From: Candidatus Methanomethylicia archaeon | GTDB taxonomy: Archaea; Thermoproteota; Methanomethylicia; CALHIW01 | Assembly (NCBI GenBank): GCA_038845975.1 | Contig: JAWBQF010000048.1 | Location: forward strand, 1-12,971 | DNA length: 12,971 nucleotides | Direction: 5' to 3' | Shown here: positions 676 to 11,573 of the stretch, one piece after another | Layout of the letters: every line of letters begins with the position of its first letter | How positions within the stretch are numbered: the first letter of the stretch is position 1 | Notes under the pieces: model-generated | Seen by the model: only the letters and a program-made list of their open reading frames with translations | What the model was told of the DNA's origin: nothing | Database searches by the model: none | Position numbers and translations under genes: made by a program

Positions 676-2139
676 TCACACAGGTACTTCTTTCATACCA
701 TGCTTTTTAGCTATAGTATTAATAAACTTGTTTAGATCTTTCTCAACATCTAATGGTAAAGGCTCAGGTTTATGTTCCTTCAGTATCCTATCAACTGTTT
801 CCCTTGCTCTATCTAATGAGTTTGTCTTCCCTTTTTCTCTTAGTAATAGTTTAAGAGGTTTCCTATCGATGACTTCACTTGGGAAATAAAGCTCTTTTCT
901 AAACCATTTTAATGTATGCTTTAACGATATGAATACACCCCTATTTACAGCTTCCTCAAATATTTCTAGAGGTGATATTTCTTCAGAGATTGAAGCTCCC
1001 CTTGCAACCCTATAGGCATAGCCACAAATTTCATTATCTAAAACTAATTTTTCTAGGCTTTGAGTAGTCTCAAAGTATAACATGCCAGGACCTGAAATGA
1101 CATTAATTCCTTTTAATACCCCTATTAGTATTCCTATTCCTGTTTCAAAGCCTGCCTGATTATCTACAACTTTTGAATCTGATAGCCCTAAATAGCCGTG
1201 TGTAGGTAATCCAAGGTATTTTCCTATTTCAACATATCCCATCACCATTAAAGTAACTTCAGGTGCACCTAGACAGGCTGTACCATACTTTAAGTCAAAT
1301 GCTGTTGGCGATCCACCATAAATTACCGGTGCTCCCTTATTTGCAAGCTGACTTATAACAATTCCTGAAAGTGTTTCAGCAGTATGCTGAGCTATACAGC
1401 CAACTATTGTTGACGGGCCTGTTGCGGCTAGTTGAGGCATAGATATGAGTTCGCATGGAATATTATATCTTGCACAATCAATTAAATTACTAATTGATAA
1501 GCTGCTCCATTTAAGTGGTGGTGATGGACATACACCAAAAATCGCTATTGGTCTCTTGCTAACATCCTCTACAACTATATCAAGCATCTTCTTCATATCA
1601 TGTATTCCCTCAAAAGTCAGAGGCGCGGCAAATACAGGTTTAACCGAGTATTTTAGGGGGATATACAATCTAAACCGGTCACTAATTAATTCTGGAACGT
1701 CTTTCGGAATTTGTCCGCTTTGAATTTGAATATTCCCCAGATAATCAACAACAGTAACTAGATCTTTAGAGTCTTTTAGAAGGAGATCTCGAATTTCCAT
1801 TGTTTCGCTATCCAGTATAAATATTGCAGCTGATCCAGGTCTAAAGTAGACATTATCCCCTTCAAGAACTATATCATGTTTACCGTCTCTACTATAAATC
1901 TTTATAGATGATGGAGCAGATTTAACAGCCTCTTTCACTAAGTCTGAACATATTTTCACTCTACTCCTCTTTTCATCAATCTCACATCCCGCCTTCCTTA
2001 AAAGATCTAGGGCATCTCTAAACTTTACCTCAATACCTATCTTTTCAAGAAGCTGAAAGCTAATATTAACAATCTCCTCAATGCTTTCACGTGAAAGAAA
2101 ACTTATTTTAGGTATGTTTGAATAAGAAAACTTGCTCAT
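676..2139 (-). CDS. Trimethylamine methyltransferase (MttB) superfamily protein, non-pyrrolysine type (quaternary/methylated amine:corrinoid methyltransferase)
   Basis: 487-aa uninterrupted ORF with family-typical segments: SPPLKW, ATGPSTIVG..AQHTAE, GAPVIYGG, GAPE, GLP....GLSDSKVVDNQAGFE and SLEKLVLDNE. Leu319 (CTA, 1183-1185) occupies the position just before SDxK where methanogen MttB has pyrrolysine. Confidence 0.9.
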   Translation of the reverse strand: MSKFSYSNIPKISFLSRESIEEIVNISFQLLEKIGIEVKFRDALDLLRKAGCEIDEKRSRVKICSDLVKEAVKSAPSSIKIYSRDGKHDIVLEGDNVYFRPGSAAIFILDSETMEIRDLLLKDSKDLVTVVDYLGNIQIQSGQIPKDVPELISDRFRLYIPLKYSVKPVFAAPLTFEGIHDMKKMLDIVVEDVSKRPIAIFGVCPSPPLKWSSLSISNLIDCARYNIPCELISMPQLAATGPSTIVGCIAQHTAETLSGIVISQLANKGAPVIYGGSPTAFDLKYGTACLGAPEVTLMVMGYVEIGKYLGLPTHGYLGLSDSKVVDNQAGFETGIGILIGVLKGINVISGPGMLYFETTQSLEKLVLDNEICGYAYRVARGASISEEISPLEIFEEAVNRGVFISLKHTLKWFRKELYFPSEVIDRKPLKLLLREKGKTNSLDRARETVDRILKEHKPEPLPLDVEKDLNKFINTIAKKHGMKEVPV

Positions 2140-2162: not shown

Positions 2163-2177
2163 TATTTAAACTTTTTC
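2163..2177 (-). promoter_or_regulatory. BRE-TATA promoter of the MttB-family gene
   Basis: Minus strand reads GAAAAAG-TTTAAATA, with the TATA box about 24 nt upstream of the ATG at 2139. This fits a leaderless archaeal transcript. Confidence 0.7.
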
Positions 2178-2187
2178 ATAGTCCAGG

Positions 2188-2248
2188 GGCTTTGTTAACT
2201 TTAGATTTATTTGGATTCTTCCTTATTTGTGGTGTGTTTATGGTTAAA
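2188..2248 (+). mobile_element. Truncated left-end fragment of the IS6-family element
   Basis: 2187-2214 is identical over 28 bp to 3162-3189 (GGGCTTTGTTAACTTTAGATTTATTTGG). Similarity continues to ATGGTTAAA, the putative transposase start, and then stops. Confidence 0.8.
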
Positions 2249-2353
2249 TGAATTATTATATGATAGACATAATACTAAGGCATTAAAGCTAATAGATAAC
2301 CACTCTGGAGATTACTTGCCATACTGTTTATCGAGCTTGATTCACTCCCTACC

Positions 2354-2866
2354 TTAACTTTCAGTCTTTCCTTTCATGTGCAGATAGTGTTTCATGTATT
2401 CATGGTATTGTTTTATAAGTTCTTTTGGGAATGGATTAACCACCACTACTTCCTTTACTTTGCTAAGCTCTTCATCCAGGGTATATATTATTGAGTTTCC
2501 TAGCCTCTTAGCTAGCTCTATGATGTAGCCATCCCATGCCTCTATATTATAGTATGTAGCATAATCTATTGCTTGTATCGCTATATCTGGTGTTATATGG
2601 GGGTAGAAGGCAGGAGATTTTGTTAAGATCATCTCCGTTAAAACATGTTTCACCTCGAGTCTAGGGAGTTTAAGATATCTCGTCGCTACATGGTATGCAC
2701 CTATAACTGTTGAGACAGGTATAGCAATTCTTCTCTTCTGTTTCAGTATGTCTGCTAGGAACTCAACTGCCCAGTTCTTCAGGGGATTATTAAATAACGT
2801 TACTACTATTATGCTTACGTCAGCTACGCCTTCCAGATATGCCAAGCTTCCTCTCAGCATATTCAT
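2354..2866 (-). CDS. vapC: PIN-domain (VapC-like) toxin/ribonuclease
   Basis: Acidic PIN residues: N-terminal VADVS, WDGYI and TLDEEL. It overlaps the 3' end of the upstream AbrB-type gene. The true start may be the TTG at 2845, which is preceded by GAGAGGA. Confidence 0.8.
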   Translation of the reverse strand: MNMLRGSLAYLEGVADVSIIVVTLFNNPLKNWAVEFLADILKQKRRIAIPVSTVIGAYHVATRYLKLPRLEVKHVLTEMILTKSPAFYPHITPDIAIQAIDYATYYNIEAWDGYIIELAKRLGNSIIYTLDEELSKVKEVVVVNPFPKELIKQYHEYMKHYLHMKGKTES

Positions 2867-3113
2867 GACTCATCCACTTCCAGCTTTCCTCAATATCTTC
2901 TGAGAATGGCTTTAGATTAGTCTTTAATGCAGCTTCAACCCACCTATTAGTAGAGCCTTCAAGATCTTTTGAGGAGAGCTCAATAACTATCCTTCCCCCT
3001 TCAACCCTTACTAATACCTCTACTTCCCCATTTATTCCTAGAGTTCTTCTCACGCTAGCCGGTATAACTAGCCTACCCTGTTTATCGATCTTAACGTATT
3101 CCACTTTATACAC
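2820..3113 (-). CDS. AbrB/MazE/SpoVT-family antitoxin (VapB-like)
   Basis: Has the swapped-hairpin motif VKIDKQGRLVIPASVRRTLGI...EGGRIVI. The ORF track starts at 3137, but that overlaps the TATA box (3137-3144), so GTG 3113 or TTG 3116 is the more likely start. Confidence 0.85.
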   Translation of the reverse strand: MYKVEYVKIDKQGRLVIPASVRRTLGINGEVEVLVRVEGGRIVIELSSKDLEGSTNRWVEAALKTNLKPFSEDIEESWKWMSHEYAERKLGISGRRS

Positions 3114-3136
3114 CAAATGGATTAAATCACACCACA

Positions 3137-3151
3137 CTTATAAATCTTTTC
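3137..3151 (-). promoter_or_regulatory. BRE-TATA promoter of the AbrB-VapC operon
   Basis: Minus strand reads GAAAAGA-TTTATAAG, about 24 nt upstream of GTG 3113. Confidence 0.65.
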
Positions 3152-3162
3152 CTAGAACAGAG

Positions 3163-3860
3163 GGCTTTGTTAACTTTAGATTTATTTGGGAGCTCTCTCC
3201 CCTATTTATGGTGTTAATATGGTTAAAGTTGTTAAGTTTGTTAGGAGAGAACTCCATTTACTCTAGTTGTTTATTGCTTATATATTTTCGTTCATCTAGA
3301 ATGGCTTCAGATATTCTAAGCTTATTGTTGTTAGGAGTTATTCTATATTATCGTGGTTTATCTTAATCTTCTATTGATAGGAGGGATGTTAGGATTATGG
3401 TTGATGATACTATTGTAAGTGTAGGTTTTAAGAGTAAGGTTATTTATGTTGTGTTTTGAGCCATTATTGAGGAGGATTCTATATGTATGGGTTTGCGATG
3501 TTTCAAATATACTTACATCACTAACATTCCTTAAGAAGATTAGAGCTATCTATGGTTCAAATATAGTTGTATTAAGTGATGGAGCTCAATACTATAAGCA
3601 TCATGAGAATATTAAAATTAAACATTATATAGTTTAGAGGTTAGAATTAATGGAGGGAATAATACAGTATACTAGGATAGATAAACTATTCGATAACTAC
3701 ATACCATATGAAGGATAGATGTGATGGTGAACATGTATTAATTCTTATAAAATCAATAATATAGCTAAAAAACATGGATTAATAAGAGGATAAAAGCTAA
3801 TAATTCACAGAAACACAATATCAAAATATAGGTAATAAACATGCTTAAGTTAGCAAAGCC
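3163..3860 (+). mobile_element. Degenerate IS6-family insertion sequence, copy 1 (~698 bp)
   Basis: 14-bp terminal inverted repeats GGCTTTGTTAACTT (3163-3176) and AAGTTAGCAAAGCC (3847-3860), with 1 mismatch and GG termini typical of IS6. Internal DDE transposase remnants are present. No target-site duplication is visible. Confidence 0.85.
3219..3800 (+). pseudogene. IS6-family DDE transposase pseudogene (multiple stops/frameshifts)
   Basis: Fragments lie in different frames: ATG MVKVVKF at 3219, RIMVDDTIVSVG at 3391, FEPLLRRILYVWVCDVSNILTSLTFLKKIRAIYGSNIVVLSDGAQYY (ORF 3446-3637), LMEGIIQY and LFDNYIP. They match the archaeal IS6 VDET / TDGxxxY / (N)xxER...FDN pattern. The 3' boundary is approximate. 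Confidence 0.75.
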
Positions 3861-4055
3861 GTTATAGGAGTAAAAAAGTTTATAACAAATACAATGTTAA
3901 AGATGAATTCTATAAATTTATTTAATCATTAAATCTTAAATATACCTCTTGTGTTTTAGCTCCTAAATCACTCTAAATTATGGATGCCTGAGGCCTTATG
4001 AGGCTATATTAATCTAATAGTTATTACTTAGGTTTATGAAAAAGCTTAATCATGC

Positions 4056-4069
4056 AAAAATAGAAAAAA
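4056..4069 (-). terminator. Putative oligo-T terminator of the substrate-binding protein gene
   Basis: Minus strand TTTTTTCTATTTTT begins about 22 nt after the stop at 4091. Confidence 0.4.
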
Positions 4070-4090
4070 TAGAATGTTATGCTAGCTATT

Positions 4091-5374
4091 TCATTTCCAT
4101 GATGGTTTAGGGAATATTAGTTCCCCTTCCTTTATAGCTTCAGGTGCTAATGCGATTAGTTTTCCGTTTTGAACTTGGATTACTACCAGATACTTAGCAA
4201 GCTCTATGTTTACATGCCAGTGTGCTTCCTCTGTTGAGAATTTTATTGGTCCAAGAATTGTTTCAACAGTTGCTTCCTCAGCTGCTTTTCTTAAAGCTTC
4301 GCGTTTCTCAGCATTAAATGGTGGAGTTAATTTTTTGGTTTCAAGTAGTTTCTGTACAAAAACACCTGTTGCTGCACAGCTCGCTTCACTATAATCAGGT
4401 TCTCTGCCATGAATGTTTTCAAATAGTTTTAAGAAGTTGCTTGGTGAATTAAAAACAGGATCTTTCCATGAGGCTTTGGGTGACCACATTGTAACGCCTA
4501 AAGCATAGTTGGCATCAGGTCCTAATTGACCTAGGAAATCTGCAGTATCTATGCCCCAGTGGAATACCATGATTTTAGGGTTAAAATCAAGCTCTTTAGC
4601 ATTTCTTACAACTACGACATGATTAGATGGATGTCCAGCATTAATAAGAACATCGGGATTTAAGGGTTTTATCTTGGTAATTAGTGGGGATAGGTCAGTA
4701 CTTCCTAATGGGTAAATCTCGTAGAAGACTACTTGAAATCTTTTTCTTTCACATTCAGCTTTAAAGCTTTCAGCTAAACTCTTAGAGAAGGCATCATCAG
4801 CACCTATTATAGCAACAGTTTTTAATGGTAGTTTAGATATGAATTCAATTATAGGTATTGGTGTTTCTCTAGTTGTTACTAAAAATTGAAATGTCCATTT
4901 AGATTTCTTTTCCGGTATTAAGTGGGATTCAGGTGAACCGCAGAAGTATGGTATCCCATACTTATCGATTACCGGTATTGTTCCGAGACAAACAGCACTA
5001 CTATATGGTCCGAAGAGAAAGTCTACACCATCAGCTATAGCTTTATCAACAGCTTTAGCTCCCTCTGCAGGATCGCTCTTAGCATCATAGTAAATCAATT
5101 CTACCCTATAGGATTTTCCATCAATTGTAATTCCTCCTTTATCATTAACTACCTTAACCCAAAGATCGTACCCCCTTTTACAAACATAGCCTCCCCTTGA
5201 AAGTTCTCCTGTTAACTCCAGTATAACACCTATTTTAAAATAATCTCTTTCAGGAGCTGGTTTAAGTAGCATATATGCGGCCACGGCAATAGCAGCTATT
5301 ATAATGACAACGATGATGATAATTACTAGTACTCTAGCAATAGCACTTTTACTAGAAATACTTATTTTATTCAT
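4091..5374 (-). CDS. ABC transporter substrate-binding protein, LIV/HAAT (periplasmic binding protein type 1) family
   Basis: N-terminal membrane anchor, KIGVILELTG, YYDAKSDP, FLFGPYSSAV, DDAFSKS, DLSPLITKIK..NPDV and TILGPIKF motifs. Cognate LIV-type ATPases and permeases are nearby. Confidence 0.9.
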   Translation of the reverse strand: MNKISISSKSAIARVLVIIIIVVIIIAAIAVAAYMLLKPAPERDYFKIGVILELTGELSRGGYVCKRGYDLWVKVVNDKGGITIDGKSYRVELIYYDAKSDPAEGAKAVDKAIADGVDFLFGPYSSAVCLGTIPVIDKYGIPYFCGSPESHLIPEKKSKWTFQFLVTTRETPIPIIEFISKLPLKTVAIIGADDAFSKSLAESFKAECERKRFQVVFYEIYPLGSTDLSPLITKIKPLNPDVLINAGHPSNHVVVVRNAKELDFNPKIMVFHWGIDTADFLGQLGPDANYALGVTMWSPKASWKDPVFNSPSNFLKLFENIHGREPDYSEASCAATGVFVQKLLETKKLTPPFNAEKREALRKAAEEATVETILGPIKFSTEEAHWHVNIELAKYLVVIQVQNGKLIALAPEAIKEGELIFPKPSWK

Positions 5375-5395
5375 CAGTAAATATAATACATAACA

Positions 5396-5419
5396 AATAT
5401 ATAACTATTTCGCTAAATT
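5396..5419 (-). promoter_or_regulatory. BRE-TATA promoter of the SBP gene
   Basis: Minus strand reads GCGAAATAG-TTATATATT, about 22 nt upstream of the ATG at 5374. Confidence 0.55.
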
Positions 5420-5440
5420 TATGAGGTGTGGCAATTTAGC
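5412..5440. promoter_or_regulatory. Inverted repeat GCTAAATT-N13-AATTTAGC, candidate operator
   Basis: Perfect 8-bp arms at 5412-5419 and 5433-5440, abutting the BRE of the SBP promoter. Confidence 0.35.
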
Positions 5441-5764
5441 ATATTATAGCTTTCTTCTTAAGTTGTAATGTTGTCCAAACAAGCCAGGTTTATGTCTTGG
5501 CTTCCTCCTATTCCTTTTTATGAATATTCTTAATTTATGATTTTATGCTGGGTAAGATGAGTATGAAAAATAGTTCAATAATACTTAAATTAAATATGTG
5601 TTAGGTAATTCGAAAGAATTTACTAGTCCATTTTAAAAAGGATAAGAATCTAAATATATTCCTAAGTTTATTCATATCCTACTACTTCTACTACTATTAT
5701 ACCATGAAACATGGAGGTGTTTAAGAATACTTATTTAACAGTATCCAAGTTGCTACGTCCTGCT

Positions 5765-5813
5765 AATTCTGCGAAATACTTAAATAGTCTTAGATGTTGT
5801 TAGGTATGGTGAT
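5765..5813 (+). promoter_or_regulatory. BRE-TATA promoter and SD of the aminotransferase-ATPase operon
   Basis: GCGAAATAC-TTAAATA at 5771-5786, and GGTGAT at 5808-5813 just before GTG 5817. Confidence 0.55.
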
Positions 5814-5816
5814 TTC

Positions 5817-7202
5817 GTGAGTTTGGTTTATGAGGAATTGTTTAGGAATTTACATTACTTAAATGCTCCAAGTATTAATGTGGTTCCTCCAGGACCTAGG
5901 GCTAGAGTTCTTTTAGAGAGGCAGAGTAGGCTTGAAGGTAAAGCAGTATTGTATCCATTATCTATCCCTCTTGTTCCTGAGGAGGGATTTGGGGCTACGG
6001 TTAAGGATGTCGATGGTAATGTCTATATAGATTTCTTTGCTGGAATTTCTGTTGCAAACTTCGGATACTCTAATCCATATATTGTTGAGGCTGCATTAAA
6101 TCAGTTAAGAAAGATTGTGCATACATTGGATTTTCCAAGTGAGCCTAGGGAGGAGCTTGCTGAGAAGCTTATTTCAATAGCTCCTGAAGGATTAAGGGGT
6201 AAATGTAAGGTTTTATTTGGTGGACCTACAGGTTCCGATGCTGTTGAGGCTTCTATAAAACTTGCTAAATGGTTTACTAAGAGGAGGGTTATTCTTGCCT
6301 TTGAGGGGAGTTATCACGGGCAGACATCGATGGCTTTAAATCTATCTAGTGGAAGAATCTTTAAGGATCCATACATACCTCTAGCTCCGGAAGTACATTT
6401 TCTACCATATCCATACTGTTATAGATGTCCATTTAAGCTACAGCATCCAGAATGCAATATTGTATGTGTAGATTATGTTGAGCATTTAATTGAGGATCCA
6501 TACTCGGGAATACCATCACCTGCAGCAATAATAGTTGAGCCAATACAGGGTGAGGGGGGAATAATAGTTCCACCATTAGAATTCCTCCCAAAGCTTAGAA
6601 GAATATCTGAAAAATATGGAGTCCCACTAATAATTGATGAGATACAGTCAGGTATGGGTAGAACCGGAAAATGGTTTGCATGTGAGCATAGCGGTATAGA
6701 TCCGGACATAATGACGGTATCTAAGGCTATAGGTGGACTTGGACTACCATTATCGGCAATAATGTATAGGGAGAACTATGATGTATGGGATCCTGGAGCA
6801 CATTTAGGAACCTTTAGAGGGCATGTATTAGCAATGAAGGCAGGAATAGCAGCAATAGAGTTTGCAGAAAAGAATAAATTGCTAGATCATGTTCAGAGAA
6901 TAGGTGAGGAAGCATTAAAATACTTGAAAGATCTTGCTGAAGAGATTAAAATTATCGGTGATGTTAGGGGGAAAGGATTAATGATAGGAATGGAAATTGT
7001 TAAGGATAAAGAAAGCAAAAAGCCAAATAAAGAAGCAACTGTAGAAATACAGATTAAAGCATTCAAAAAAGGATTAATAATATGGAAAGCAGGACACTAC
7101 TCAAACGTAATTAGACTCTTACCGCCTCTAACAATTACTAGAGAACTAATGATTAAAGGATTAGAAATACTTAGAGAGACACTAATTGAGGCTAAAGGAT
7201 AG
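5817..7202 (+). CDS. Class III PLP-dependent aminotransferase (4-aminobutyrate / 2,4-diaminobutyrate transaminase-like)
   Basis: Motifs DVDGNVYIDF, TGSDAVEASIKLA, FEGSYHG, EPIQGEGG, DEIQSGMGRTG, DIMTVSKAIGG (PLP lysine), HLGTFRG, DVRGKGLMIG and IRLLPPLTI. Confidence 0.9.
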   Translation: MSLVYEELFRNLHYLNAPSINVVPPGPRARVLLERQSRLEGKAVLYPLSIPLVPEEGFGATVKDVDGNVYIDFFAGISVANFGYSNPYIVEAALNQLRKIVHTLDFPSEPREELAEKLISIAPEGLRGKCKVLFGGPTGSDAVEASIKLAKWFTKRRVILAFEGSYHGQTSMALNLSSGRIFKDPYIPLAPEVHFLPYPYCYRCPFKLQHPECNIVCVDYVEHLIEDPYSGIPSPAAIIVEPIQGEGGIIVPPLEFLPKLRRISEKYGVPLIIDEIQSGMGRTGKWFACEHSGIDPDIMTVSKAIGGLGLPLSAIMYRENYDVWDPGAHLGTFRGHVLAMKAGIAAIEFAEKNKLLDHVQRIGEEALKYLKDLAEEIKIIGDVRGKGLMIGMEIVKDKESKKPNKEATVEIQIKAFKKGLIIWKAGHYSNVIRLLPPLTITRELMIKGLEILRETLIEAKG

Positions 7203-7229
7203 TAAGTATAAAGGCTGAAGGGGTAATCA

Positions 7230-7955
7230 TTGCTTGAAGGCATAAATGTAACTAAGTATTTCGGGGGGCTAGTAGCCTTAAAAAATATAAATTTCAGCAT
7301 TAGGAAAGGTGAAATACTAGGTTTAATTGGACCTAATGGAGCAGGTAAAACTACACTGTTCAACATTATTTCCGGAGTTATTAAACCAACAGCTGGTACT
7401 ATTAGATTCCAGGGTAATGATATAACTGGAGAACCACCACATAAAATATGTAAAATGGGTATTGCAAGAACGTTTCAAATAGTTCAACCATTCCTTAACA
7501 TGAGTACTCTTGAGAACGTAATGGTTGGCTTACTTTACGGTAGGAGGAATATGAGTGTTCTGGAAGCCAGAAAAGAGGCTTTAAGTATTTTAGAGCTTTT
7601 AGGAATTAAGGAGAAAAGCATGATTCCAGCTGGAAAACTTACGCTTATTGAGAGGAGAATGCTTGAATTAGCAAGAGCATTATCAACAGAACCTCATATA
7701 ATACTCCTAGATGAAGTGCTTGCAGGACTTAACCCTACCGAAACTATGAAAGCTGTAGGCATAATTAGGAGGCTTAGAGATGAATATGGAATAACCATTT
7801 TCTGGATTGAGCATGTAATGCGTGCTATAATGACTGCAGCTGATCGAATAATTGTCCTTCATTACGGTGAAAAAATAGCTGAAGGAACCCCTAAGGAAAT
7901 AGTGAAAGACTTAAAAGTTATTGAGGCATACCTAGGGAGGAAGTATAGATCTTAA
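7230..7955 (+). CDS. livG: Branched-chain amino acid-type ABC transporter ATP-binding protein (LivG-like)
   Basis: KYFGGLVAL, Walker A GPNGAGKTT, GIARTFQ, Walker B LLDE, IEH switch and C-terminal EAYLG. TTG start after GAAGGGG. Confidence 0.9.
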   Translation: MLEGINVTKYFGGLVALKNINFSIRKGEILGLIGPNGAGKTTLFNIISGVIKPTAGTIRFQGNDITGEPPHKICKMGIARTFQIVQPFLNMSTLENVMVGLLYGRRNMSVLEARKEALSILELLGIKEKSMIPAGKLTLIERRMLELARALSTEPHIILLDEVLAGLNPTETMKAVGIIRRLRDEYGITIFWIEHVMRAIMTAADRIIVLHYGEKIAEGTPKEIVKDLKVIEAYLGRKYRS

Positions 7956-7966
7956 CGGTGTAGCTC

Positions 7967-8671
7967 ATGCTTGAAGTTAATGAAATAAACGTTTTTTACG
8001 GTTATCTTCAAGCTCTATGGAGTGTTTCATTCAATGTAAATAGTGGTGAAATACTATGTGTTGTCGGCTCTAACGGAGCTGGAAAAACCACAATTCTCAG
8101 AACAATTTCAGGACTTATACATCCAAAATCAGGAAACATCAAGTTCCTCGGTAAGGAAATACATAATATTCCCCCTCATAAAATAGTAGAGATGGGAATA
8201 GCTCACGTTCCTGAAGGTAGACAAGTATTTCCCCAAATGACTGTACTAGAGAATCTAAAGATGGGAGCCTTTACGAGGAGGGCTTGGAGTAAAATGGAGG
8301 ATACTCTTGAATTCATCTATCAACTATTTCCAATCCTAAAGGAGAGAGGGAAACAGCTTGCAGGTACTTTAAGTGGAGGAGAACAGCAAATGTTAGCGAT
8401 AGCGAGGGGATTGATGGCTAAGCCATCACTTTTAATGATTGATGAGCTTAGTCTAGGTTTAGCTCCTAAAATAGTAGAACTCCTTTTTGAAGCTATTAAG
8501 AATATTAATGATCAAGGCGTAACAATACTGCTTGTAGAGCAAAATATAAGAGCTGCATTAGAAGTCTCAGATAGAGGATATGTTTTAGAGAATGGAAGAA
8601 TAGTTCTTAGCGGTAAATCTGAAGAATTAATAGAAGACGAAACCATTAAAAAAGCTTATTTAGGACTATAA
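7967..8671 (+). CDS. livF: Branched-chain amino acid-type ABC transporter ATP-binding protein (LivF-like)
   Basis: Walker A GSNGAGKTT, VPEGRQVF, signature LSGGEQQML, DELSLGLAP, LVEQN and C-terminal AYLG. Confidence 0.92.
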   Translation: MLEVNEINVFYGYLQALWSVSFNVNSGEILCVVGSNGAGKTTILRTISGLIHPKSGNIKFLGKEIHNIPPHKIVEMGIAHVPEGRQVFPQMTVLENLKMGAFTRRAWSKMEDTLEFIYQLFPILKERGKQLAGTLSGGEQQMLAIARGLMAKPSLLMIDELSLGLAPKIVELLFEAIKNINDQGVTILLVEQNIRAALEVSDRGYVLENGRIVLSGKSEELIEDETIKKAYLGL

Positions 8672-8886
8672 CTAGAATATAAGTAGTAAGCCTCCAACTC
8701 TTCCAATTCTAACTAGCTTAACTGTGAATTGTTATAAACTATTTAAATCCTATTCTTTGCATTTAAACGTCCACATAATTAGTTAGAAATAGTCTAGAGT
8801 ACTATAGAGTTATTATGGAGTAACGAAGATGGGAGTATCAAGTAAGCGCATTAAATGTAAGCTATTCTCTCTAATAATGATGAGAG

Positions 8887-9879
8887 TTAGCTTTGCCCTA
8901 TCAATGCTTCTCTTAGAATTCTACGTATAGAAATAAATTCTCTACGTTTAAGTATTAGTCCTACAATTCCTTGAGGCATAAGTAAAACTATAAACATTAT
9001 AACAGTACCGAGAAATACCATATACCATATTTCAGTCCAGTAGGTCCAGAGAACCTCCAGAATAGTTAGTAGTACTGTAGCTCCAATAATGGGTCCCAGA
9101 TAGCTTCCAACTCCACCTAGCAGTAGCATTACGAACATTTGATCTGTCTTCAATCCAGCAAAAGCATCTCCTGGATATACATAGTTTATCCATAATGCAT
9201 ATGCACCACCTAAGAAACCAGCATATAAAGCACTTATCATGAAAGCTATTAATCTATACTTCGAAATATTTACACCTAATGTAGCTGCAGCTATTTCTCC
9301 ATCTCTTATAGCTCTAAATGCAAATCCTAACTTATGCTTTTCAATAGTGATGTTAGTTATTATGGAGGACACCGTTAAAAATAGTATTAAGTAATATGCA
9401 TCAATACTACTTAGGATTGCTGGTACAGATATACCGTAAGATGCTCCTGTCTCCCTTAATACGTTGAATAGCTGTTTAAGAGCTTCGGCGAAAGACCATG
9501 TAGCAATGGCGAAATATGCGCCATGTAAACGTAGTGTAGGAGCACCAATCAATATAGCAAGCAATAGTGCAAATATTCCTGATAAAACCAATCCTATAGG
9601 CCAATAGAATCCATAGCTTATACTAATAGCTACTGTATAGGCTCCAACTCCGAAGAATGCAACATGTCCAAAATCAACTCTTCCCGTATAGCCAGTAATA
9701 ATATTTAGACTTTCAGTTAATCCAATCCATAGGAGAATATTTGTTATAAATCTTATCCAGTAAAACGGTACTTTAAATATAGGTAATAGGAGTAGAACTA
9801 CTACAATTACTAGTAGGATATAGAGGAATTTTAACTCTTCCCTTAATAAGTAAAAAACTTCACTAAGAGTTTTCTTCAA
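8887..9879 (-). CDS. livM: Branched-chain amino acid-type ABC transporter permease (LivM-like)
   Basis: Hydrophobic protein with NIITGYTGRVDFGHVAFFGVGAY, LRLHGAYFAIAT, AIRDGEIAAATLGVN and LLGGVGSYLGP. TTG start lies 2 nt after the livH stop. Confidence 0.9.
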   Translation of the reverse strand: MKKTLSEVFYLLREELKFLYILLVIVVVLLLLPIFKVPFYWIRFITNILLWIGLTESLNIITGYTGRVDFGHVAFFGVGAYTVAISISYGFYWPIGLVLSGIFALLLAILIGAPTLRLHGAYFAIATWSFAEALKQLFNVLRETGASYGISVPAILSSIDAYYLILFLTVSSIITNITIEKHKLGFAFRAIRDGEIAAATLGVNISKYRLIAFMISALYAGFLGGAYALWINYVYPGDAFAGLKTDQMFVMLLLGGVGSYLGPIIGATVLLTILEVLWTYWTEIWYMVFLGTVIMFIVLLMPQGIVGLILKRREFISIRRILREALIGQS

Positions 9880-9881
9880 GC

Positions 9882-10751
9882 TTAAACACCCTTGCCGAAT
9901 ATGCCTTTAGGCCTTGTAAGGAGAACTATATAAAGCACTAGAAATGCTAGGAAGTATACAAGTATTGGATTATAGTAGGTCATTATATATGATTGAAGAA
10001 GCCCCAGTATTAATCCACCTATAAATGTACCGGGTAAATACCCCATTCCACCCATTACGGTAATGAAGAAAGCAAATAAAGTATATAATGGGCCAAGTGG
10101 AGGATGAAATGATGTTATTTGAGCAATTAAGGATCCTGCTACACCTGCAGTTCCAAATCCTATTCCAAGAGTTATCTTATACATTTTACTAACATCAACA
10201 CCCATTAGTTTAGCTGCATCCCTATTCTGGTATGTAGCTACAATAGCCATACCGGTTCTAGTTCTCTTAAGAAATATATAAAGCATTGTAATAATCAATA
10301 TTGAAATCATAAATGCTATCAGTCTTACTACTGGAATACTTACACTATATACTTCAATACTAACTCCTGAAAGCTCGGTTGTAAGTATTCGTGTAAATGG
10401 ACCCCATAAAATCAGAGAAGTGTTAGAAAGTAATATTGAAAAACCAAAGAAAAATACAAGACTCATTAGTGGAGGAGCCTCCATGATTTTATTAACTAAA
10501 AGCCCCTGCATAATATATCCGAATATGAAGAACCCTATGAACAATACAGGTACCATTAATATAGGGTCAACATGATACATTAAATACACCCAGTAAGTCA
10601 AATATGCTCCTAAAATTACAAGATCACCCTGCGCAACATTTATTATATGCATTACACCAAACGTGAAGGACAAACCTATCGATAACAATACATAAACACC
10701 ACCAAAAAGTATACCATTAACTAAAGCCTGAGCAAACATAGAATCCATCAT
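9882..10751 (-). CDS. livH: Branched-chain amino acid-type ABC transporter permease (LivH-like)
   Basis: NGILFGGVY, GLSFTFGVMHIINVAQG, RTRTGMAI..QNRDAAKLMGVD, GGMGYLPG and RPKGIFG motifs. Confidence 0.9.
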   Translation of the reverse strand: MMDSMFAQALVNGILFGGVYVLLSIGLSFTFGVMHIINVAQGDLVILGAYLTYWVYLMYHVDPILMVPVLFIGFFIFGYIMQGLLVNKIMEAPPLMSLVFFFGFSILLSNTSLILWGPFTRILTTELSGVSIEVYSVSIPVVRLIAFMISILIITMLYIFLKRTRTGMAIVATYQNRDAAKLMGVDVSKMYKITLGIGFGTAGVAGSLIAQITSFHPPLGPLYTLFAFFITVMGGMGYLPGTFIGGLILGLLQSYIMTYYNPILVYFLAFLVLYIVLLTRPKGIFGKGV

Positions 10752-10778
10752 GTCAACCTAAATATATTTTACGGAAAT

Positions 10779-10792
10779 TATTTAAATCTTTC
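10779..10792 (-). promoter_or_regulatory. BRE-TATA promoter of livH-livM
   Basis: Minus strand reads GAAAGA-TTTAAATA, about 28 nt upstream of the ATG at 10751. Confidence 0.65.
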
Positions 10793-10849
10793 TTCTCCCT
10801 AAACGGCTTTGTTAACTTAAGCATGTTTTATCACTCTATTTTGGTATTG

Positions 10850-11431
10850 TATTTTCTATGAATTCTTAGCCTTTCTTCTTATTAATCCATGTTTGTTTAG
10901 TTATAATATTGACTTATAAGCTAGGTACATGTTCACTATTACATTATCCTCATGTATGGTATATAATTATCAAATAGCACATCCTAATATGCTGTATTCT
11001 CTCCATAAATTCTAATCTCTAAATATTAATGTTTAATTAATATTTACATGCTATAGTAGTGAGCATCATCACCAAGTACAATTATATTAGAGTCTAAGTA
11101 CCCTAATCTTCTTAATGTTAAGGATGTAAATGTATTTGAAACATCACAAAATATGTAGAGAACTCTTCTCAATAATGCCCAGCAAAATACGTAACTTAAT
11201 TTTAGAGTACACTTTAACAGTATCATTAACAATCAGTCCTAATATTTCCTTAAATCAAATTCAAATAAGGCTTAAATACTAAATCATAATATAGATACAT
11301 ATAACAATAATAAGCTTAGAATATCTGAAGTATCTAAATGAACGGAAATATATAAGTAAACGGAAATATATAAGTAATAAATAACTAGAATAAATAGAGT
11401 TCTCTTCTACAAACCTAATAACTTTAGCCAT
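10850..11431 (-). pseudogene. IS6-family transposase pseudogene, copy 2
   Basis: Frameshifted fragments homologous to copy 1, including ORF 11044-11232. The 3' boundary is approximate. Confidence 0.7.
11341..11376 (+). repeat. 18-bp perfect tandem duplication (AACGGAAATATATAAGTA x2)
   Basis: Units at 11341-11358 and 11359-11376. The equivalent site is single-copy in IS copy 1 (~3275-3295). Confidence 0.9.
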
Positions 11432-11573
11432 GCTATCACCATAAATAGGGGAGAGCTTCCAAATGAAGCTAAAATGTTAAGTTCTGTAAGTTTAGATATA
11501 TTATCAACGTCTTTTAAATGAGAGTGAATAATACTTATCGACTTATATTTTATCTCAATAATATTCATAGCTT

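Follow-up and report, generated by a model that had tools for sequence, protein, structure and literature searches.

The yeast long terminal repeat (LTR) retrotransposon Ty3 inserts at RNA polymerase III start sites, and structures have shown that its integrase is tethered there by TFIIIB. In bacteria, the elements TnGBS, ISLre2 and ISKra4, which use Mutator-like DDE transposases, target sigma-A promoters: insertion falls 15-17 bp upstream of the -35 box, and the promoter stays intact; TnGBS/ISLre2 members with near-perfect inverted repeats (IRs) use both orientations, contact with the initiation complex has been proposed by analogy with Ty3, and a circular intermediate has been reported for TnGBS-type elements (Guerillot et al. 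2014, PMC3942029). The available text of that paper mentions an AT-rich target for the archaeal element ISH6, and no fixed distance to the transcription factor B recognition element (BRE) and TATA box of archaeal promoters. The IS6 family is characterized by short terminal repeats with a GG tip and a TG core (PMC7986276). According to the available text of two reviews, IS6 elements can form hybrid promoters by supplying the -35 box, and one of the two questions the family membership of the archaeal elements; neither text mentions promoter-anchored targeting for IS6 (PMC7986276, PMC6807381). A search of the full-text literature found no published promoter-aimed insertion for archaeal BRE/TATA promoters or for IS6-like elements, and the available part of a paper on Pyrococcus insertion sequences makes no mention of it. 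In the present study, we analyzed a stretch of 12,971 bp (the window), which is the entire contig JAWBQF010000048.1 of a Candidatus Methanomethylicia archaeon, and the archaeal assembly to which it belongs (2.77 Mb, 76 contigs, 33.7% GC). The window contains decayed archaeal IS6-like insertion sequences of ~700 bp (family 1), which also have 50-60-bp derivatives of the MITE type (miniature inverted-repeat transposable elements). We found that the ends of these elements lie at a fixed distance upstream of outward-facing BRE/TATA boxes, both in the window and throughout the genome.

The family-1 IR, GGCTTTGYTAACTT, had four exact matches in the window (2188+, 3163+, 3860- and 10805+), compared with a mean of 0.28 in the shuffled window; none of 200 shuffles reached four. 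The four ends belong to three pieces, namely a fragment (2188-2248), a full copy (3163-3860) and an inverted copy (10805 to ~11487). The original prediction, made from the letters of the window, was that every intact end faces an outward BRE/TATA box at 17-18 nt and that three of the boxes are correctly placed for genes. The flanks read as quoted, with gaps of 17, 18, 18 and 18 nt, and each of the four TATA boxes has an A-rich BRE-like hexamer directly ahead. The three gene-associated boxes likewise stand at suitable distances from their start codons (mttB, 31 nt; AbrB-like gene, 28 nt; livH, 35 nt). With a background of 4.0% for each end, simple arithmetic gives a probability of ~3e-6 that all four would face a box by chance. 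Two further cases, from a second repeat family (5424-5473 and 5746-5760), add to these four ends. Altogether, the window contains six promoter regions, and five of them have an element end beside them, the exception being that of the homoserine dehydrogenase gene.

To place these ends in a genomic context, we collected all 231 ends that differ from the repeat at no more than one base and examined their flanks in the outward direction; 230 were unique after near-duplicate flanks had been removed. Two motifs were scored, a strict one (the hexamer TTTAWA) and a relaxed one, which allowed one mismatch in the hexamer and required A three bases ahead and A or T four bases ahead. It was observed that the strict hexamer started at offset 19 in 48 of the 231 ends and at offset 18 in 5, while no other offset within 1-60 was used more than four times. 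The relaxed motif started at offset 19 in 82 ends and at offsets 18, 20 and 21 in 9, 11 and 7, respectively, compared with a mean of 2.3 and a maximum of 6 per offset at offsets 31-120. Among 100,000 random intergenic-like positions, the relaxed motif was present at offset 19 in 1.0% and at offsets 18-21 in 4.0%. The binomial P for 82/231 against the 1.0% background was ~3e-100, a value that overstates independence because many ends share history through recombination. For the unique flanks, 99 of 230 carried the motif at offsets 18-21, against 4% of the random positions. Thus, the comparison with random intergenic positions that had been proposed as a check gave a sharp peak at the expected spacing. 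The wording "every end" applies to the window alone; across the genome, a promoter is faced by roughly one of the two ends of an insertion. These results confirmed that the fixed box spacing is real and extends through the genome beyond the window.

The same spacing was observed in three further sets of elements. The genome also holds 24 MITEs of ~60 bp, made of the two ends alone, and 13 of their 48 ends had the box at offset 19, with no more than 2 at any other offset. The repeats of the second family (family 2) begin with GGACGTGGCAACTTA, and the family consists of 50-bp MITEs and elements of ~230-660 bp, which are below the size needed for a 228-aa transposase; its 94 ends gave 16 boxes at offset 19 and 6, 4 and 5 at offsets 18, 20 and 21, respectively. 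A scan of metagenomes with P0001, an intact 228-aa transposase relative, yielded 79 loci, whose best tblastn segments were 42-96% identical to the query and whose elements had slightly different tips and duplications of 8-9 bp. In the 163 unique flanks of these loci, the box lay at offset 19 in 37, at offset 20 in 16 and at offset 21 in 8, and no offset outside 18-21 exceeded 5. Across the archaeal class, a search with NF033587, the NCBIfam model of the IS6 family transposase, detected the transposase model in 7 of 62 genomes, in which copies were too scarce for statistics.

The sequence that is met at this distance has the composition of an ordinary promoter. The crenarchaeal BRE consensus is RNWAAW, located directly upstream of TATA. 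Across the 48 strict-motif flanks, the bases at positions 12-26 followed the pattern V, R, W, W, A, R, R, TTTAWA, T, A; A16, on the element side, was found in all 48, and there was no mirror signal beyond the box. With the BRE on this side, transcription would proceed away from the element. As a control, we used 104 gene promoters, selected solely because TTTAWA stood at the canonical distance and elements were absent from the vicinity. These promoters shared the profile (A16, 84%; A15, 65%, with T in 26%; T25, 61%), and the element-flanked set was a somewhat stronger version of it. In the genome, TTTAWA peaks 28-29 and 36-37 nt before the ATG of long open reading frames (ORFs). An ORF of at least 80 aa started 20-60 nt past the box in 32 of 53 strict-motif flanks versus 41 of 178 other flanks, and a G-rich Shine-Dalgarno-like signal was present 29-32 nt past the TATA start. 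The promoter-facing ends comprised 21 left ends, 26 right ends and 6 of neither type; such similar usage is expected because the repeats are near-identical.

To determine whether the boxes belong to the host or to the element, we examined target duplications in the 75 convergent end pairs with a separation of 300-1000 bp (660-735 bp for most). In 26 of these 75 copies, the repeat tips were directly abutted by a perfect 8-bp direct repeat, and in 6 more by one with a single mismatch. In the flank, this duplication takes up positions 1-8 and lies between the tip and the BRE/TATA box. When duplications of 7-9 bp, or of 8 bp with one mismatch, were accepted, 35 copies bore a duplication, and the motif was present on one side only in 24 of them, on both sides in 3 and on neither in 8. 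Because the duplications lie between tip and TATA and the box is one-sided in 24 of the 35, the promoters are host DNA. The original prediction had offered a second reading, in which the true element extends ~26 bp past the IR and donates an outward BRE/TATA promoter to its neighbors. A box at all four window ends would fit this, as would the two boxes of 3163-3860, the only full copy in the window with both ends intact. However, the perfect duplications stand against the GGCTTTG tips, inside the supposed extension, and the other flank usually lacks the TATA box. Flank positions 1-11 carry at most 0.24 bit and positions beyond 27 almost no information, so the flanks are not part of a longer repeat; the likeness between flanks, which had been cited for the longer element, amounts to the shared BRE/TATA consensus. 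In addition, two-sided copies are mostly those without a duplication (8/40 versus 3/35), as a reshuffling of flanks would give. We therefore regard an element-borne promoter as extremely improbable.

That 40 of the 75 copies lack a duplication indicates that flanks were reshuffled after insertion. In these 40 copies, no motif was found in 14, one in 18 and two in 8, which is near the 1:2:1 ratio expected from flanks reshuffled by recombination. The window copy 3163-3860 falls in the last class, having no duplication and a box on both sides.

The duplications also define the ruler itself. For 8-bp duplications, 21 of the 26 genomic motif calls and 10 of the 13 from the metagenome loci placed the box at offset 19; for 9-bp duplications, 4 of 7 placed it at offset 20, these last counts being small. 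As 8 bp goes with offset 19 and 9 bp with offset 20, the constant is the 10 bp from the duplication to TATA. Another element's tip was found exactly at flank position 9 in 5 family-1, 4 family-2 and 15 metagenome unique flanks, compared with no more than 2 at other positions; such an arrangement arises if a second element inserts into the same 8 bp next to the same promoter. As a separate observation, six metagenome loci on different contigs (L045, L048, L071, L072, L073 and L102) share one promoter-proximal site and its 8-bp duplication. Full elements in either orientation and a 59-bp MITE sit in this site, which looks like a hot spot struck several times.

After restoration of the insertion sites, 1 of 31 was located in an open frame 150 codons or longer, whereas such frames cover 67% of the genome. 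This scarcity, together with the AT-richness of the genome, would also agree with random or AT-biased insertion followed by selection that removed gene-damaging copies. Such a process, however, cannot yield a peak one base sharp within intergenic DNA, where random intergenic-like positions give 1% at offset 19, and it leaves the strict polarity and the repeated use of identical 8 bp by different elements unexplained; we consider it very improbable. Collectively, the elements are aimed at promoters that lie outside them, with fixed spacing and polarity, and we state this with high confidence.

All family-1 copies in the genome are broken; an intact 228-aa version of the transposase is present in a metagenome relative. 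The longest ORF among the 75 paired copies is 145 aa, and the copies are 85-90% identical to the window copy. Two genomic copies retain long in-frame pieces, one of which weakly matched the NCBIfam IS6 models (E ~5e-4), while the other gave no match. The weakly matching piece retrieved P0001, at 67% identity. P0001 matched NF033587 over its full length (E 5.7e-14), with 52 bits against a cut-off of 125 bits, and had no match in Pfam. All 33 aligned full-length relatives matched NF033587 (best E 2.1e-44). In the alignment of the 33 sequences, no variation was seen at D74 and E160, and at least 90% of the sequences conserve D132, K167 and R169. The AlphaFold2 model of P0001 (mean predicted local distance difference test score 83.6) showed three N-terminal helices (14-56), an RNase-H-like beta-alpha core and a long C-terminal helix, and its best matches in the PDB were retroviral integrase cores (E ~1e-6, target template-modeling score 0.65-0.75). 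A DDE triad on an RNase-H-like fold after a helix-turn-helix, as in the archaeal clades of IS6, is thus predicted. The transposase is IS6-like and not of the Mutator-like type (p-MULT 3/4) with its signature motif; an IS256 match was obtained for only 2 of the 33 relatives.

The other features of the elements point in the same direction. The IR is present at both element ends and has the GG tip and TG core of the archaeal IS6 clades; the 8-bp direct target duplication is shared with them as well. Their length of ~700-890 bp, filled by a single transposase gene, is also found here, as the metagenome relatives measure 705-800 bp and the 228-aa ORF of one of them (L040) runs into the right repeat. 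That ORF is the only intact one among 45 unique paired metagenome elements. With GG...TG tips, 8-bp duplications, length and transposase, the elements fit archaeal "IS6". The label given in the original prediction holds only in the loose archaeal sense, with the qualification that P0001 scores below the NF033587 cut-off and has no Pfam match and that the genomic copies are all broken. The 40 copies without a duplication are the sole, indirect hint of replicative transposition via cointegrates. The notion that the founding copy was already non-coding was considered and rejected: a majority consensus of 31 copies has stops in all frames, but single copies keep long in-frame pieces, and the stops are probably an indel artifact. 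A search of the genome with PF13610 found two broken IS6-like copies, both unrelated, and a scan of genome contigs with P0001 gave no match. The only PF13610 match above the cut-off in the genome (L001, G000:C7:63589-64290) is an unrelated, GC-richer, broken IS6-like copy with different tips. Two side observations concern related elements. A (TA)n run ~160 nt into the element, encoding A-Y-I-Y-F, varies in length by a few bases among copies, through gains or losses of 1-2 nt, and breaks the frame (L040 compared with L025, L028 and L036); it may act as a hot spot of slippage by which the transposase is turned off. A Thaumarchaeota metagenome-assembled genome record (L128, 1409-2080) contains a 672-bp IS6 element whose tip is almost the same as that of family 1, whereas its transposase is only ~30% identical; it has neither an 8-bp duplication nor a TATA at offset 19.

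Promoter-anchored transposition by an archaeal IS6-like DDE transposase is, as a whole, the best explanation of these results, and we consider it reasonably probable. In the proposed mechanism, one IS6-like transposase would have moved the ~700-bp insertion sequences, the 50-60-bp MITEs and a second, non-autonomous set with related IRs. Strand transfer occurs with an 8-bp stagger, sometimes 9 bp, and the promoter-side cut falls 10 bp upstream of the first T of TATA, ~4 bp upstream of the BRE. Because of this cut position, the element comes to lie beside DNA that is expected under TBP and TFB; the genome encodes one TBP and two TFB genes as its initiation factors. Landing occurs in either orientation and leaves the host core promoter and gene intact. 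The transposase may find the spot by contact with the promoter complex bent by TBP and TFB and not by reading the bases itself, a proposal to which we assign about an even chance. Such contact is favored because the target profile matches that of ordinary promoters, down to the degenerate positions, and because the offset is the same across diverged transposase relatives and different repeat families. Targeting upstream of TFB/TBP-bound promoters was one of the two readings offered in the original prediction. The targeting itself was borne out by the sharp peak, the one-sided TATA, site re-use, replication in further sets and the 1/31 sites in open frames, while the involvement of TFB and TBP is reached only indirectly.

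Direct read-out, a serious rival to which we give a lower probability, would need neither TBP nor TFB: the transposase would recognize BRE/TATA-like bases, for example with its helix-turn-helix, and cut at a set distance from them. This reading is a live alternative because the 228-aa transposase, as modeled, has no spare domain besides the helix-turn-helix, the core and the C-terminal helix. All the target information lies in 14-15 contiguous bases (flank positions 12-26), which a DNA-binding domain could read, and the spacing is rigid. A variant of this reading relates to the left end of family 1, which has its own BRE/TATA-like box at 13-26 inside the element (e.g., window 3175-3188), starting at position 19, with the transposase ATG at ~57. 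This internal box is presumably the transposase promoter, and as it mirrors the target geometry, a promoter might be mistaken for a "pseudo-end". However, family-2 MITE ends and one metagenome sub-family have no internal box at 19 and still lie at offset 19 from a promoter. In its degenerate positions, the target agrees with ordinary promoters; the specificity of TBP/TFB predicts this agreement, which a preference of the transposase's own need not show. The loci with this offset also include transposase relatives that share as little as 42% identity with P0001.

Besides the compact transposase, several points weigh against promoter-anchored transposition guided by TBP and TFB. The use of the boxes as promoters is read from their geometry alone, and contact with TBP/TFB is something we infer only from a target profile equal to the generic promoter profile. 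Eight of the 35 duplication-bearing copies had no motif by our criterion, several of them showing near-motifs by eye. The ends are not fully independent events, as the 40 of 75 copies without a duplication illustrate. A genome of the same genus (62% complete) gave no empty site; its DNA identity is ~65%, so that intergenic regions could not be aligned. In four hot-spring runs from four studies, no joint skipping 3163-3860 or 10805-11487 was found, contigs being unable to show absence, and the hot-spring contigs hold elements at the window's sites, breaking ~27 nt inside them. Finally, two Thaumarchaeota loci, obtained from a scan with the Nitrososphaerota relative P0010, combine a nearly identical IR and a ~30%-identical transposase with no TATA at offset 19, two loci being too few to judge generality.

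The features of the window are listed in Table 1.

Table 1. Element ends, promoter boxes and associated genes in the 12,971-bp window.
Feature	Position	Strand	Details
mttB gene	676-2139	-	Pfam MTTB match, E 2e-83
mttB BRE/TATA	2163..2176	-	TATA 2170-2163; 17-nt gap to element end; 31 nt before ATG 2139
Family-1 IS6-like left-end fragment, 61 bp	2188..2248	+	Exact IR at 2188; blastn to consensus 1-65, 83% identity
BRE/TATA of AbrB/MazE-like antitoxin + PIN operon	3137..3150	-	TATA 3144-3137; gap 18 nt
Full-length decayed family-1 element, 698 bp	3163..3860	+	89% identity to consensus (blastn); longest ORF 70 aa
Orphan BRE/TATA-like box	3873..3886	+	TATA 3879-3886; 18 nt from right end of 3163-3860
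BRE/TATA of periplasmic-binding-protein gene (Peripla_BP_6, ATG 5374)	5398..5411	-	18 nt from family-2 MITE end
Decayed ~50-bp family-2 MITE (GGACGTGGCAACTTA type IR)	5424..5473	+	blastn 95% identity over 38 nt to genomic family-2 MITE
Family-2-like IR end, 2 mismatches	5746..5760	-	Pattern match; decayed element to the left without defined extent
BRE/TATA of class-III aminotransferase + livG-livF unit	5773..5786	+	Gap 18 nt to family-2 end
livH-livM BRE/TATA	10779..10792	-	TATA 10786-10779; gap 18 nt; ATG 10751, 35 nt past TATA start
Older inverted family-1 copy	10805..11487	-	Right-end IR exact; left end degenerate; no recognizable target duplication

The AbrB-like gene starts with TTG at 3116, 28 nt past the TATA start, and Pfam matches to MazE_antitoxin and PIN were obtained in its operon. 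This pair of a PIN-domain toxin and an AbrB/MazE-like antitoxin (2354-3116) is situated between two element ends. The aminotransferase start codon, GTG 5817, is 38 nt past the TATA start, and the livH-livM unit has a Pfam BPD_transp_2 match. In the older inverted copy, blastn aligned 10805-11480 to consensus positions 728-8 at 75% identity, the end at ~11487 being read from the sequence. Behind the orphan box at 3873-3886, no ORF, tRNA or Rfam match was found. The box points toward the binding-protein gene, which is convergent to it and presents its 3' end; the box probably represents a promoter parted from its gene by the recombination between copies that reshuffled their flanks. Family-2 repeats fill the intergenic region 5375-5816, and both outer ends are 18 nt from the BRE/TATA boxes of the divergent genes. 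DNA near-identical to the window is carried by hot-spring metagenomes. Elsewhere in the genome, a 423-bp family-1 derivative (G000:C9:50235-50657) lies ~200 bp downstream of the only TBP gene. In the same-genus genome, one decayed copy was located 19 nt from the BRE/TATA box of an electron-transfer-flavoprotein-like gene, which is an anecdote only.

The promoter aim explains how several hundred element ends can be present in a 2.77-Mb genome with hardly any broken genes. Because each insertion severs the core promoter from upstream DNA, as at five of the six window promoters, the regulatory effect could be broad. Element ends also offer a means of locating promoters from sequence only. If guidance by TBP and TFB is true, an element end would show that the adjacent promoter is bound in vivo, and the enzyme might be used to insert DNA beside promoters. 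The intact 228-aa sequence makes it testable whether a DNA transposase reads the archaeal pre-initiation complex.

Compared with IS6/IS26 as described in the available sources, the present elements share a length of ~700-750 bp, GG/TG repeats, 8-bp duplications, a single ~220-aa transposase with helix-turn-helix and DDE domains, and frequent copies without a duplication; the E..x...K.R motif is shared with archaeal IS6. They differ in promoter-anchored targeting and in the score of P0001 (52 bits against the NF033587 cut-off of 125). Like Ty3, they are directed to a target that would be marked by a complex of TBP and a TFIIB-like factor, insert within a window of a few bases and spare genes; unlike Ty3, they are DNA transposons located upstream of the BRE, for which tethering is only deduced. 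It is a tentative proposal, held with somewhat less than even confidence, that the transposase is physically guided by the TBP-TFB-promoter complex, as a prokaryotic counterpart of Ty3/TFIIIB, and that archaeal DNA transposons have long and widely relied on promoter-anchored landing to multiply while sparing genes. With TnGBS, ISLre2 and ISKra4, as far as the available description extends, they have in common a fixed distance upstream of the promoter, an intact promoter and insertion in both orientations, and the position-specific promoter enrichment at the element end that distinguishes the TnGBS/ISLre2 functional class was found here. The differences are an IS6-like instead of a Mutator-like transposase and BRE/TATA instead of sigma-A -35/-10 promoters, so the elements work like this functional class and are not members of it. 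The closest known parallel is thus bacterial TnGBS/ISLre2, whose transposase family is unrelated to that of the present elements.

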